This document shows, in pieces, positions 34,242-38,027 of a stretch of DNA of 64,000 bases (position 1 is the first letter of the stretch; every line of letters begins with the position of its first letter). Location: positions 1-64,000 of the forward strand of contig JAHQWH010000226.1 in NCBI GenBank assembly GCA_029856105.1, in the 5' to 3' direction. Position numbers and translations under genes: made by a program. Under the pieces are notes generated by a model, which saw only the letters and a list, made by a program, of their open reading frames with translations, made no database searches and was not told the DNA's origin. Source of the stretch: Promethearchaeia archaeon (GTDB lineage Archaea; Asgardarchaeota; Lokiarchaeia; Sigyniarchaeales; SOKP01).

Positions 34242-34508
34242 TTATGAGCTGATCAATTGAAAGAGAATGTTTGCGTGTGGTATAAAGAATTGGTCTTTGG
34301 TTTTTATCACCACAGTATGAAAGTATTCAGCCAAACCTAAGAATCCACGAATTACAGATTCGTCTTCCTCAAATTTAAACACAACCTTCGCTATGGCCGC
34401 ACTACCACTAAAAGTGACTTTATCGTAAACCCGCTCATCGATCAATGGAATTTTTAACTCATTTACAATTTCATAAACTCGTTTAATAAAGAGTTCTCGC
34501 TTTGGAAT
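34242..34508 (-). CDS. Small hypothetical protein (88 aa if started at ATT 34508)
   Basis: Frame is open upstream of the track start (34445) as (I)PKRELFIKRVYEIVNELKIPLIDERVY; AGGTG SD-like motif precedes the ATT. Confidence 0.65.
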   Translation of the reverse strand: MPKRELFIKRVYEIVNELKIPLIDERVYDKVTFSGSAAIAKVVFKFEEDESVIRGFLGLAEYFHTVVIKTKDQFFIPHANILFQLISS

Positions 34509-34803: not shown

Positions 34804-35505
34804 TTGGTTTCTAAGGAATACAAAAAGATAGAGCGCGTCGTTAATTTTATGAAAAAAGGTTTACAATCATTAAGTGACGATCTAGAAGACACAGTTAGCG
34901 GAATAAACGATTTTATAAAATCGTTAAATAAAGCGTTAAAGGATTTGAAAGATGTTTCATTAAAACCAGAGGTTCAAACTGTTAGTAGTTCCTCTAAACA
35001 AATTGTTGCTCCAGCAAGTGGAACGGCAAAGACTGCTGCTGCGAGCACATTATTTAGTTTACTTAGCGGTAGTTCCGGACCCGTTCAACAAGCACCCGCT
35101 GCTACTACAGCTAGCTTAGCTCCTGCAATTGGTGTCCCTCCCAAGAAACCAGGAAAAAGGAGTCCTCCAACAGCTCCAGTAGCTGGAGGACCTCCAAAGA
35201 GACCCGTAAAGGGTGGCCCTCCAAGGGCTCCAGTGGGCGGCGCCCCTCCTAAGCGTGCTAATCTACCACCCGCTCCAAAATTACCTCCAACATCTGGTGG
35301 ACCTCCACAAGCTCCTAATGCGGGAGTTGTTCAAGCACCATCATTTGCTAAAAGACCTGCACCTCCCGCCGCGCCCGTAGCAGGTGCCCCCCCTCGACCC
35401 GCAGTGCCCGTAGCAGCACCTAGCGCAGGAGGCGGCTTGAGTTCTTTACGTGATGAAATGTTAGAAGAGTTAAATCGCCTGAAGAAAATAATGAGAGGCG
35501 AATAA
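34804..35505 (+). CDS. Coiled-coil / proline-rich protein with C-terminal WH2-like or VASP-tetramerisation-like helix
   Basis: N-terminal heptad helix; GGPP/APP-rich middle; ends GGGLSSLRDEMLEELNRLKKIMRGE. Confidence 0.8.
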   Translation: MVSKEYKKIERVVNFMKKGLQSLSDDLEDTVSGINDFIKSLNKALKDLKDVSLKPEVQTVSSSSKQIVAPASGTAKTAAASTLFSLLSGSSGPVQQAPAATTASLAPAIGVPPKKPGKRSPPTAPVAGGPPKRPVKGGPPRAPVGGAPPKRANLPPAPKLPPTSGGPPQAPNAGVVQAPSFAKRPAPPAAPVAGAPPRPAVPVAAPSAGGGLSSLRDEMLEELNRLKKIMRGE

Positions 35506-35587
35506 AAACAATTAATTTCTCATAATTTTTTATTCTAACCACTATAATACGCAAAATTTTTAATCCTAAAACAAGAAGACATTACTT

Positions 35588-36334
35588 GTGGAGAGAAAAG
35601 ATTTTCTTGTAACTGAAAATGAAATTCCTATTGTTGTTCCTAAACGTTTAATGGTATTTGCGGGTCACCCAGATGACGAAATTGTTTCATGTGGTGGAAC
35701 AATTCTTAAATATCAAGCATTAGGCTCTGAAATCATTGTTGTAGTAGCTACAAGTGGGTTGGGTGGATACGCTAAAACGGCCCACAAGGAAGATATCTTA
35801 GAACAGCGAAAGCAAGAACTTGATTTAGTCCGAACTGCTTTAAAATGTAGAGTTATCGAATTAGGATACTCTGATTTGGAGGTTAAAAGAGAAATTATCT
35901 CTGAAGTGACAAATCTTATTAGAGACATCCGCCCTCAAGTGATTCTATTACCTCACTTCTCGGATTTTCATAGAGTTCATAGAACATTATCTTTAATTAC
36001 AAGAGAAGCTATTTATCATTGTTCGACGGGAAAAGCTTATGGAGGACACGAGAGGAACTGGACTCCGCTAGGAGCGTATTATTACGAATCTCCTTCTTGT
36101 AAATTTCAATATATAGAAGGTTCTGTCTTTATAATAGTCAATATTGAAAAATATTGGGTAGAAAAGAAAGAAATTTTTAATCGAGTTTATAAATCTCAGA
36201 AAGAAGTGTTAGAGCGAGTTTTGGATTGGGCAGAAGATACGTCAATTTTACGAGGTAACGAAATTAATTCAAAGTATGGAGAAGCTTATATTCCTATGAC
36301 AGAATACACTCCTTTGAAGATTTTATTAGTGTAA
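35588..36334 (+). CDS. PIG-L/LmbE family deacetylase
   Basis: GHPDDE..SCGGTI, R..E, IR..RP..ILLPH..D.H..H, Y.SQ, YGEAY. Confidence 0.9.
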   Translation: MERKDFLVTENEIPIVVPKRLMVFAGHPDDEIVSCGGTILKYQALGSEIIVVVATSGLGGYAKTAHKEDILEQRKQELDLVRTALKCRVIELGYSDLEVKREIISEVTNLIRDIRPQVILLPHFSDFHRVHRTLSLITREAIYHCSTGKAYGGHERNWTPLGAYYYESPSCKFQYIEGSVFIIVNIEKYWVEKKEIFNRVYKSQKEVLERVLDWAEDTSILRGNEINSKYGEAYIPMTEYTPLKILLV

Positions 36335-36403
36335 AAATAGATAGGTTAATTGGAGAATTCAAATAAAGTTATATTAATTAAATATTGTATAATAATAGAA
36401 ATA

Positions 36404-37519
36404 ATGGGCAATCTTACTGTTGTTTTGGATATTGGGCAGTTCTCGACTAAGGCCGGGTATGCTGGGGAAGATATGCCAACTCAAATCTTTTTTACGATAG
36501 TAGGAAAACCTAAGTATAGACAGATCGATTACGAATACGCGGGTATTAAACAAGACGAATATTATGTAGGAGACGAAATCCAATCAATAGGCTTGTATAA
36601 AGTTTTTTATCCAATTGATAAAGGAATAATCCAGGACTGGCTGTCGTTTGAAAAAATAATTGATTACATTTTCTACAATTTGAGAGTTGATCCAAGTTTA
36701 GTCAACGTTTTATTCGCCGTCCACCCATTGTTTCCACACGGGGATATAAAACGGCTATTTGAATTATTTTTAGAAAACTACCAGTGCAACGCGTTTTATC
36801 CCGTTTTAGACTCTATGCTTACTTTATACGCGGGAGGATTTCAAACAGGGTTAGTGGTTGAAATAGGGGATAGTATCACGAGAATAGTGCCAATTTACGA
36901 GGGATACAAGTTAGATCATGCAGTAAGGATACTTGAGATTGGTGGAAGAACTTTAACCAAGTATATGGAAAAAATATTAGGTGAAAGTGGCTTTTCAGCT
37001 GACTCTTCAATTAGAAAAGAACTGGTAAGAGCCCTCAAAGAAAAAGCTTGCTTCGTCTCGCTCGATTATAAAGAAGATTTAAAAAGAGCTGAACAGTATG
37101 AAAAAGAGTATTCTTTACCGGATGGTTCTACCATTTCTTTGAGTAAAGAAAGATTTGCCGTGCCTGAGCTTTTTTTTAATCCATCATTAGAATTGGAAGA
37201 AGATTCTTTAACAGAGGCTATTATGGATGTAATCGACATGTGTGACGTCGATATCCGAGCAGACTTATTGAACAACATTTTTTTATCGGGAGGATCGTCT
37301 CTATTTCCGAATTTCAAATCTAGAATGTATCAAGAATTAGAATTTGAATTAGCACGGAGGAAAAAAAAGAACCAAATTATCAAAATAATAGCACCTAGGG
37401 AACGAGTATTCTCTGTTTGGGTTGGTGGTTCAATCTTAGCTACCATTCCTGAATTTCAAAGTAATTGGGTAACGCGTGCAAAATATTTTAAAGATGGTAT
37501 TCCTGAGAATCTTTTATAG
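36404..37519 (+). CDS. Asgard actin-related protein (divergent)
   Basis: VVLDIG..STKAGYAGED.P, YVGDE, YPI..GII.DW, GLVVEIGD, VPIYEGY, KEK.C.V.LDY, Y.LPDG, LSGGS, SVWVGGSILA; start placed at ATG 36404 to match the actin N-terminus. Confidence 0.95.
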   Translation: MGNLTVVLDIGQFSTKAGYAGEDMPTQIFFTIVGKPKYRQIDYEYAGIKQDEYYVGDEIQSIGLYKVFYPIDKGIIQDWLSFEKIIDYIFYNLRVDPSLVNVLFAVHPLFPHGDIKRLFELFLENYQCNAFYPVLDSMLTLYAGGFQTGLVVEIGDSITRIVPIYEGYKLDHAVRILEIGGRTLTKYMEKILGESGFSADSSIRKELVRALKEKACFVSLDYKEDLKRAEQYEKEYSLPDGSTISLSKERFAVPELFFNPSLELEEDSLTEAIMDVIDMCDVDIRADLLNNIFLSGGSSLFPNFKSRMYQELEFELARRKKKNQIIKIIAPRERVFSVWVGGSILATIPEFQSNWVTRAKYFKDGIPENLL

Positions 37520-37643: not shown

Positions 37644-38027
37644 GTGGTGTTTTTAAATATGGAATTAGGTCCTCCAAATAATAGTTTTGAACAAACTAAA
37701 ATCCTGAAAAAATATTACAAACCAGATTACTCTCAATTGTTTAATAAAATTAAAGAAATTAAAGCCCCTATCAAAAAAGAAATATTAATCGGGCTAATTG
37801 ATGGCGTTTGGCATTCGGAATTAGATTTAATAAGGATCGCAAAAAAACAACAAAGATACATGGGTGCCGTTACTCTTGGAACGATGATCCATTCTTTAAA
37901 TAACAGTTTAAAAAACGACTATGTTGAGAAGAAAGTCGTGAATGGAAAACTATTTTACAAAATTTCTGACAATTACGTAGGTCTAACTCGAGCTGCTTAT
38001 AACAAATATAATTTCAAAATGGATTAG
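37644..38027 (+). CDS. Small basic protein, probable winged helix-turn-helix
   Basis: Helices followed by a VEKKVVNGKLFYKI wing-like hairpin. Confidence 0.6.
   Translation: MVFLNMELGPPNNSFEQTKILKKYYKPDYSQLFNKIKEIKAPIKKEILIGLIDGVWHSELDLIRIAKKQQRYMGAVTLGTMIHSLNNSLKNDYVEKKVVNGKLFYKISDNYVGLTRAAYNKYNFKMD

Follow-up and report, generated by a model that had tools for sequence, protein, structure and literature searches.

PRO, our label for a 233-aa protein encoded in a 64,000-nt stretch of DNA from a Promethearchaeia archaeon (contig JAHQWH010000226.1; the whole stretch is called the window, and positions are given in it), had been read in an initial annotation as an actin nucleation or elongation factor of the WASP/WAVE/VASP type, ending in a WH2 motif and acting with an actin-related protein (ARP) encoded nearby. 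Comparison with other genomes indicates that PRO belongs to an undescribed and Asgard-restricted family, and that its C-terminal 'LRDEML' helix is a portable module, also borne by GTPases, zinc-ribbon proteins and membrane proteins. On balance, we think it probable that the members of this family are flexible tether or adaptor proteins. The architecture put forward in the initial annotation was upheld, while the WH2 identity of the tail and its coupling to the ARP were not.

A word-indexed search returned 202 homologs of PRO, every one from Asgard metagenome-assembled genomes and none with an assigned name. Both termini are near-invariant among them and the Pro-rich middle is variable, which argues that the features of PRO are more than chance. 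A PRO profile matched 169 of 400 genomes of the phylum, including 117 of 134 in f1, the taxonomic family of the window's own genome (other f-numbers denote other Asgard families), and 14/14, 3/4, 3/3 and 2/2 in f3, f4, f5 and f7, respectively. Matches in f9, f19, f27 and f28 were weaker, and there were almost none in several other large families. Distant members retain the architecture, with L87, P140, P191, L215, E218, M219, E222 and R225 invariant across the phylum. No Pfam family matched the whole protein at E ≤ 0.1, and Pfam and NCBIfam together gave nothing significant. The homologs open with methionine (MVSKE.KK) at the position of the PRO TTG codon, confirming TTG as the start.

The N-terminal coiled coil, the stretch of approximately 95 aa of Pro/Ala/Gly repeats and the terminal helix with LKKI (35428-35502) described in the initial annotation agree with the composition of PRO and with an AlphaFold2 (AF2) model built on a 36-sequence alignment (Table 1). 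From its hydrophobic pattern and the single-helix model, the segment of aa 4-49 is probably a coiled-coil or oligomerisation element. In lineage L059, a transmembrane (TM) helix and a coiled coil stand in for it while the arm and end helix are retained, giving a membrane-anchored variant. A weak helix was modelled at aa 77-87, covering the conserved LFSLL motif, and the chain is disordered from approximately aa 90 to 210. Pro makes up 30%, Ala 22% and Gly 11% of residues 95-208, which contain 10 PP, a longest Pro run of 2 and six units of the G(G)xPP[KRQ]xP type. The tail, GGGLSSLRDEMLEELNRLKKIMRGE, is encoded by 35428-35502, with LKKI at 35479-35490. AF2 drew aa 212-230 as a single unbroken helix (predicted local distance difference test, pLDDT, 78-94) that continues through LKKI. 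PRO ends in ...LKKIMRGE, with nothing beyond and no Trp, and all homologs terminate alike.

Table 1. Positions in the window of the PRO gene, its segments and the neighbouring genes.
Feature	Position	Strand	Description
PRO gene, 233 aa	34804..35505	+	TTG start; coiled-coil / Pro-rich arm / docking-helix protein (putative); 202 homologs
N-terminal long helix, aa 4-49	34813..34950	+	AF2 pLDDT about 90; heptad-like hydrophobic pattern; conserved
AASTLFSLLSG motif, aa 77-88	35032..35067	+	conserved; L87 invariant in phylum-wide alignment
Disordered Pro/Ala/Gly arm, aa 95-208	35086..35427	+	GGPPK-type repeats; length and sequence variable
LPPAPKLPP linear motif in arm	35263..35289	+	invariant in 36 sequences; LP[PA]PPK[LM]PP in next family
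PSFAKRP linear motif in arm	35338..35358	+	conserved; fixed in family alignments
C-terminal amphipathic helix LSSLRDEMLEELNRLKKIM, aa 212-230	35437..35493	+	portable 'LRDEML' module; L215, E218, M219, E222, R225 invariant
PIG-L family deacetylase gene	35588..36334	+	PF02585, E=1e-23; 82 bp after PRO
Divergent actin-related protein (ARP)	36404..37519	+	PF00022, E=4e-90; ORF from 36350, probable ATG 36404
Companion gene, 88-aa alpha/beta protein	34242..34508	-	divergent from PRO; ORF finder gives 67 aa from TTG (34242-34445)

The tail has the consensus S-L-R-D-E-M-L-x-E-L-x-R-L-K-x-I-M, in pattern form LR[DE]EMLxELxRL[KR]xI[MI], and all faces of its helix are fixed within f1. A hidden Markov model (HMM) of the PRO tail matched one other open reading frame (ORF) of the window genome, C108:3230-3700 (+) (locus L117; E = 3e-5), and its 24 orthologs (40-53% overall identity) all keep an internal [FL]LRDEML[NE]ELN[HN][LI][KR]x[LI]I upstream of a zinc-ribbon-like end. 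A shared-word search for longer tail-bearing proteins found none; these came to light when 1.84 billion representatives were searched exhaustively with a profile, which yielded 91 proteins only. Ras/Roc GTPase fusions (PF00071/PF08477) are among the 91, one of them with two copies of the helix. Other carriers are Zn-ribbon proteins, three-copy proteins and multi-copy small proteins, and one further carrier is labelled Sigynarchaeota. The helix usually lies between Pro-rich linkers, sometimes as 2-3 copies in tandem. A profile made from 72 distinct copies found exactly two carriers in the window genome (E about 1e-9 each), and positions that had not been used in extracting the copies were still conserved (E+7 in 92% and R+10 in 67%). 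Judged by these comparisons, the LRDEML helix is a portable module, and its conservation and spread are characteristic of a short motif that docks onto, or pairs with, a conserved counterpart common to its carriers. Because the contact face is invariant across the class, that counterpart must be Asgard-wide and very conserved.

The C108 protein itself is 157 aa long, with the helix at residues ∼57-75, then NNPDLKL and the zinc-ribbon-like end (CPIC...CCTC); Pfam and NCBIfam gave nothing significant for it. Its zinc-ribbon half has many paralogs, with 1-6 matches per genome. P0188, P0171 and P0215 (L178:8001-9674) represent a family labelled Hodarchaeales, whose members (509-567 aa) combine about ten TM helices with a helical segment and a Pro-rich arm and end in the docking helix (...ELRGEMLKELRRLREIFKEE); the L178 gene sits among ribosomal-protein genes. 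A membrane-targeting role for the PRO tail was rejected on composition, the tail having 5 acidic and 5 basic residues; membrane-targeting helices of the MinD/FtsA type are unlike it in this respect.

Asgard Rab-like GTPases with a long, motif-bearing tail and a terminal zinc ribbon resemble PRO in one part: in the two GTPase fusions P0161 and P0202, the LRDEML helix has Pro-rich linkers on both sides and precedes a GIPCCxCF zinc ribbon. PRO, in contrast, lacks both the GTPase domain and the zinc ribbon, so that the helix and its Pro-rich flanks are all that is common. Thor-Rab (7EZB) is a short-tailed relative of these long-tailed GTPases (PMC10933270).

In the mechanism that we propose, the N-terminal helix of PRO would oligomerise, the Pro-rich arm would serve as a long flexible spacer, and the end helix would dock onto a common, very conserved partner or zip with the same helix on other carriers; by docking, PRO would tether its partner. 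The 88-aa product of the divergent neighbouring gene (the companion) would be a likely subunit or cofactor. The single most likely partner of the tail, tentative as it is, is the hydrophobic groove of the main actin, engaged in an arcadin-2- or WH2-like mode. In descending order, the same helix on other carriers (helix-helix pairing) is a possible but doubtful partner, something else is unlikely, an MIT domain (for example, the one in Vps4) rather unlikely, and the companion, whose synteny with PRO is strong, improbable.

The initial annotation gave the tail a definite role. PRO would be a WASP/WAVE/VASP-like nucleation-promoting or elongation factor, and its terminal WH2 would deliver actin to, or activate, the ARP two genes downstream. 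We now consider this improbable. Within the proposed layout of oligomerisation, proline-rich and WH2 segments, the N-terminal helix, the arm and the terminal helix are real and conserved; what fell was the assignment of the last to WH2. There are likenesses to the WH2 (PF02205) arrays of WASP/WAVE/Spire/Cobl, in that both are short helical modules next to Pro-rich sequence, occur in many architectures and sometimes in tandem, and place L-[KR]-x-[ILV] after an amphipathic helix; the Pro-rich flanks and tandem copies of the other carriers also resemble WH2 arrays. WH2, however, consists of a helix, a linker and an extended LKKV, whereas the PRO helix is predicted to be continuous through LKKI with no helix-breaking linker, and its invariant acidic and basic residues (E218, E222 and R225) are no WH2 signature. 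The last 39-40 aa of four members matched neither PF02205 nor any other Pfam family at E ≤ 10, and the tail profile matched no WH2 or thymosin chain of the PDB at E ≤ 10. A strict pattern of the LLxxIxxGxxLKKV type is not matched by the tail. A permissive WH2 pattern fits it but was found 1469 times in the proteome as compared with about 1450-1520 times in shuffles, and the match is thus uninformative.

LKKI itself, which the initial annotation expected to be conserved, is replaced by LKSI, IKEI, LKRL, LKKL, LKKY, LRRI or LREI in other lineages or carriers. Among the tail copies, the LKK[TV]-like tetrad has L in 96%, [KR] in 91%, a variable third position and I/L/V at the fourth in 88%; the second K of LKKI belongs to the helix face that varies. 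No acidic or Trp region follows LKKI, and there was no match to EVH1 or to the tetramerisation domain (PF08776). PRO follows the overall logic of Ena/VASP, with a putative oligomerisation helix, a middle part rich in Pro and short helical motifs for binding, but against the Ena/VASP plan (EVH1, Pro-rich region, EVH2 with GAB/FAB and tetramerisation coil) its order is reversed, the coil being N-terminal, EVH1 and VASP_tetra matches are lacking, and its Pro runs are PP only. The G-rich lead-in and L..EM...L.R.K of the tail presumably recall the VASP F-actin-binding segment, which we take as a lead only. The arm has no (G)P5 runs; published work reports that Loki and Odin profilins do not bind VASP polyproline (PMC8410842). 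In the literature that we searched, the only WH2-like motifs known from Asgard archaea are embedded in gelsolins (PMC9433394; bioRxiv 10.1101/2025.11.30.690169).

The genomic link to actin was correctly described for the window. PRO is co-oriented with the PIG-L gene and the actin-family gene at gaps below 100 bp (82 bp, and 15-69 bp depending on the start chosen for the latter). Ten f1 loci keep the order companion(-)/PRO/[PIG-L]/ARP/127-aa gene/topoisomerase(-), and the PRO-(PIG-L)-ARP order is retained in at least eight f1 genera, even where PIG-L is missing. PIG-L is present between PRO and the ARP in some f1 genera only and is therefore not an obligatory part of the locus. The retained order would favour a nucleation factor working with the ARP, as would one closed genome of the next family in which PRO, the companion and the likely ARP ortholog lie within 45 kb. 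Outside f1, however, the linkage that the initial annotation anticipated in relatives is absent: ten loci examined in other families had no actin homolog within ±8 kb of PRO. The likely ARP ortholog (50-52% identity, versus 44% for the main actin) is 44 kb away from PRO in one closed f3 genome and 273 kb away in another, and the PRO family is also present in a 1.4-Mb genome that has only one actin. The family is thus independent of the window-type ARP, and PRO-actin adjacency is confined to one archaeal family, f1. Of three outcomes named in the initial annotation as speaking against its proposal, two were therefore largely what we found: LKKI as such is not conserved and the actin linkage is absent outside f1.

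The ARP itself also speaks against this reading, several of its barbed-end-groove positions being altered. Five actin-family genes were counted in the genome. Two of them are canonical-like (442 and 427 bits; 85% mutual identity), the copy in the window reaches 297 bits, and the remaining two diverge further. With the main actins, the window copy shares 42% identity, and it retains 110 of 216 positions that are invariant in 17 main actins. In its nucleotide site, the phosphate-1 loop reads DIGQF in place of DNGTG, Asp stands at the Gln137 equivalent and Arg at that of His161, and the C-terminal HRCF has become ENLL. With nucleotide site, groove and C-terminus rewired and 110/216 invariant positions kept, the gene is best described as an actin-related protein.

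A role for PRO in the actin system is possible all the same, through the main actin. The tail helix may dock in the barbed-end groove of this ultra-conserved protein, so that its carriers (coiled-coil tether, membrane proteins and GTPases) would connect actin, as monomer or filament, to other structures with no homology to WH2, a reading that we hold tentatively. A precedent is provided by arcadin-2 of Pyrobaculum, a regulator of crenactin whose C-terminal helix, on an unstructured linker, docks in the archaeal actin groove (PDB 5LY3; PMC5173319). Both are small archaeal proteins with the same layout of a conserved C-terminal helix on a non-conserved, unstructured linker, encoded beside an actin homolog (for PRO, in f1 only), but arcadin-2 lacks a Pro-repeat arm, and its helix is used neither as a portable module nor in tandem. 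The main actin, 96-100% identical within f1 and ∼80% across the class, is the best match to the helix in conservation, and the f1 synteny with an actin paralog and the existence of membrane-anchored helix carriers are further points in favour. On the other side, the other carriers have no actin-system neighbours, and the main text of the report on Lokiactin co-immunoprecipitation from L. ossiferum names gelsolins, a profilin and an Arf and no PRO-like protein (bioRxiv 10.1101/2025.11.30.690169). The local gene tags of that study increase linearly with position in genome G138, on which scale the L. ossiferum ortholog of PRO (about 729.4-730.2 kb of the 6.04-Mb chromosome) would fall close to tag 0062x. 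A wider version, in which the LRDEML helix is an Asgard-wide actin-docking motif, a WH2/arcadin-2 analogue of independent origin, and PRO and the membrane and Rab-like GTPase carriers are the missing links between actin, membranes and GTPase switches, is conceivable, and we hold it with considerable reserve.

To our knowledge, gelsolins and profilins are the only established Asgard actin regulators, and no account has been given of how these archaea connect actin, membranes and their many Rab-like GTPases.

A different counterpart is suggested by the ESCRT system. The PRO helix might be a MIM1-like tail that binds the MIT domain of Vps4 or another protein, as in ESCRT-III of the Vps2/24/46 class, making PRO a client or recruiter of Vps4; we consider this rather unlikely. 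Asgard Vps2/24/46 tails have been described as MIM1-like (PMC7240154). In the window genome, the Vps2-class ESCRT-III encoded beside Vps4 ends in ...KVKELEDELNKLKSRD (relatives, ...KIAELEKELNRLKSDE), in register with ...DEMLEELNRLKK of PRO. Both are extreme C-terminal amphipathic helices after a flexible, P-containing linker, sharing the core E-phi-x-x-E-L-x-[KR]-L-K, and M219, L223 and L226 with K227 fit the hydrophobics at 0, +4 and +7 and the basic residue at +8. The pattern E[LMI]..E[LI].[KR][LI][KR] occurs 7 times in 4085 ORFs, C-terminally only in that ESCRT-III and PRO, and 0 times in 5 shuffles; it was composed, however, after both sequences were in view. When the 4085 were ranked by C-terminal match to an HMM of ESCRT-III tails only, PRO came third, narrowly ahead of the second ESCRT-III paralog, but the scores are tiny (4.9 bits; global E = 13). 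The PRO helix is longer, differs from ESCRT-III at +1 (L instead of E), and carries extra conserved hydrophobics (L215, I229, M230). The internal and tandem copies of other carriers are untypical of MIM1, and PRO has no Snf7 core (no PF03357 match; its N-terminal part is a single 46-residue helix). The MIT domain is 50-82% identical within f1, as compared with a PRO tail fixed even on its exposed face; this comparison is weak, since the core positions of the ESCRT-III tail are also fixed. No lineage-specific co-variation was noticed (f5 ESCRT-III has I at +4/+7 and PRO keeps L), and there is no genomic link of PRO to ESCRT genes. The resemblance of the two tails is thus suggestive only.

Apart from ESCRT proteins, the C-terminus that best matched the ESCRT-III-tail HMM (7.6 bits) was that of a 147-aa ORF at C39:6925-7365 (-). 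It ends in ...KIKMLEKELKSSKKK, which may be another MIM1-like tail.

The helix may also need no foreign partner. As a short coiled-coil element (heptad core L212/R216/M219/L223/L226/M230) it could pair with itself or with its counterpart on other carriers, so joining, for instance, GTPase, Zn-ribbon, membrane and tether proteins, or form intramolecular bundles in tandem-copy proteins, which we regard as possible, if doubtful. The sole matches of the profile in the PDB, all partial, were the ends of leucine zippers (GCN4 NEVARLKKLM), and the tail sequence has a regular 4-3-4-3-4 spacing. The two or three tandem copies with flexible linkers between them, and the fixation of all helix faces within f1, are also consistent with pairing. 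Against this, 19 residues are short for a stable zipper, AF2 leaves the tail unpacked against the N-terminal helix of PRO (predicted template modelling score, pTM, 0.22), and the window genome has only two carriers.

The companion is the steadiest neighbour of PRO, in varying orientation, and its phyletic pattern follows that of PRO. It lies immediately next to PRO in f1 (divergent), in f5 and f7 (convergent or co-directional), in f19 (convergent, ∼150-170 bp apart in two genomes) and in f27 (convergent, 86 bp), and in one f3 genus it is 3 kb away.

Several observations weigh against PRO as a tether assembled in the way proposed. The companion is separate from PRO in three closed f3 genomes (by 24, 92 and 262 kb) and turned up in only 3 of 89 genomes when our tally pooled the three families that remained; if those 89 include the lineage of the Hodarchaeales-labelled membrane form, it cannot be the universal partner of the helix. 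Around four other carriers no actin or ESCRT gene recurs, nearby Ras-like GTPases being the sole clue that these neighbourhoods offer. Finally, the case for oligomerisation of the N-terminal helix consists of its hydrophobic pattern and an AF2 model of a single helix.

If PRO is a tether, the family combines a conserved single-copy protein with a sharply defined short helix motif common to several protein classes, and the 25-residue tail peptide can be used directly as bait for a conserved hub in the organisation of Asgard cells. Any partner that it brought down (actin, Vps4/ESCRT or a new protein) would bear on the origin of eukaryote-like short-motif wiring; a partner other than actin would remove a tempting but unsupported annotation as an 'archaeal WASP/VASP'. 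New in this analysis are the portability of the helix, its tie to the zinc-ribbon-bearing tails of Rab-like GTPases, the resemblance to an ESCRT-III tail, the chance-level occurrence of the WH2 pattern, and the extent of the companion with its apparent ATT start.

As to that extent, the 21 codons upstream of the companion's listed TTG (M[PA]K[RK]ELFIKRVYEIVNELKIP) are conserved with synonymous changes, and its homologs, about 390 in number, are typically 88 aa long; the product is therefore 88 aa rather than 67. The start of this upstream segment (34446-34508, -) is ATT in the window and in L007, ATG in relatives, and is preceded by AGGTG. This suggests that the companion of the window begins at AUU. 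Pfam and NCBIfam gave nothing significant for either the 67- or the 88-aa form. The 67-aa core, without the N-terminal 21 aa, was modelled by AF2 (pLDDT 81.5) as beta-beta-alpha-beta-beta-beta. No convincing known fold was found for this core, with a best E of 0.03 in Foldseek and a best Z of 5.3, below the noise guide, in VIA-align, where the top matches were RsfS/iojap-like and glyoxalase-like.

Some minor features of the locus and its relatives were also recorded. The 127-aa gene 3' of the ARP (37644-38027, +) accompanies the ARP throughout f1 and has undergone tandem duplication in two genera (L051:10044-10793 and L055:10258-10964); neither Pfam nor NCBIfam matched it. P0128 (549 aa, on a 2.1-kb contig) is PRO-like over residues 57-262 and continues into a TIR domain (PF13676, 6e-18), as either a real fusion or a merged call. 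L047 (G280:C262; same order) lies in a strikingly high-GC region with many long spurious ORFs in all frames, and the PRO tail ...SLRDEMLSELNRLKKIMGGAK is kept there. In the companion gene of L054, an in-frame insert of ∼30 nt with a TAG lies inside the conserved ELFIKRVYE stretch.

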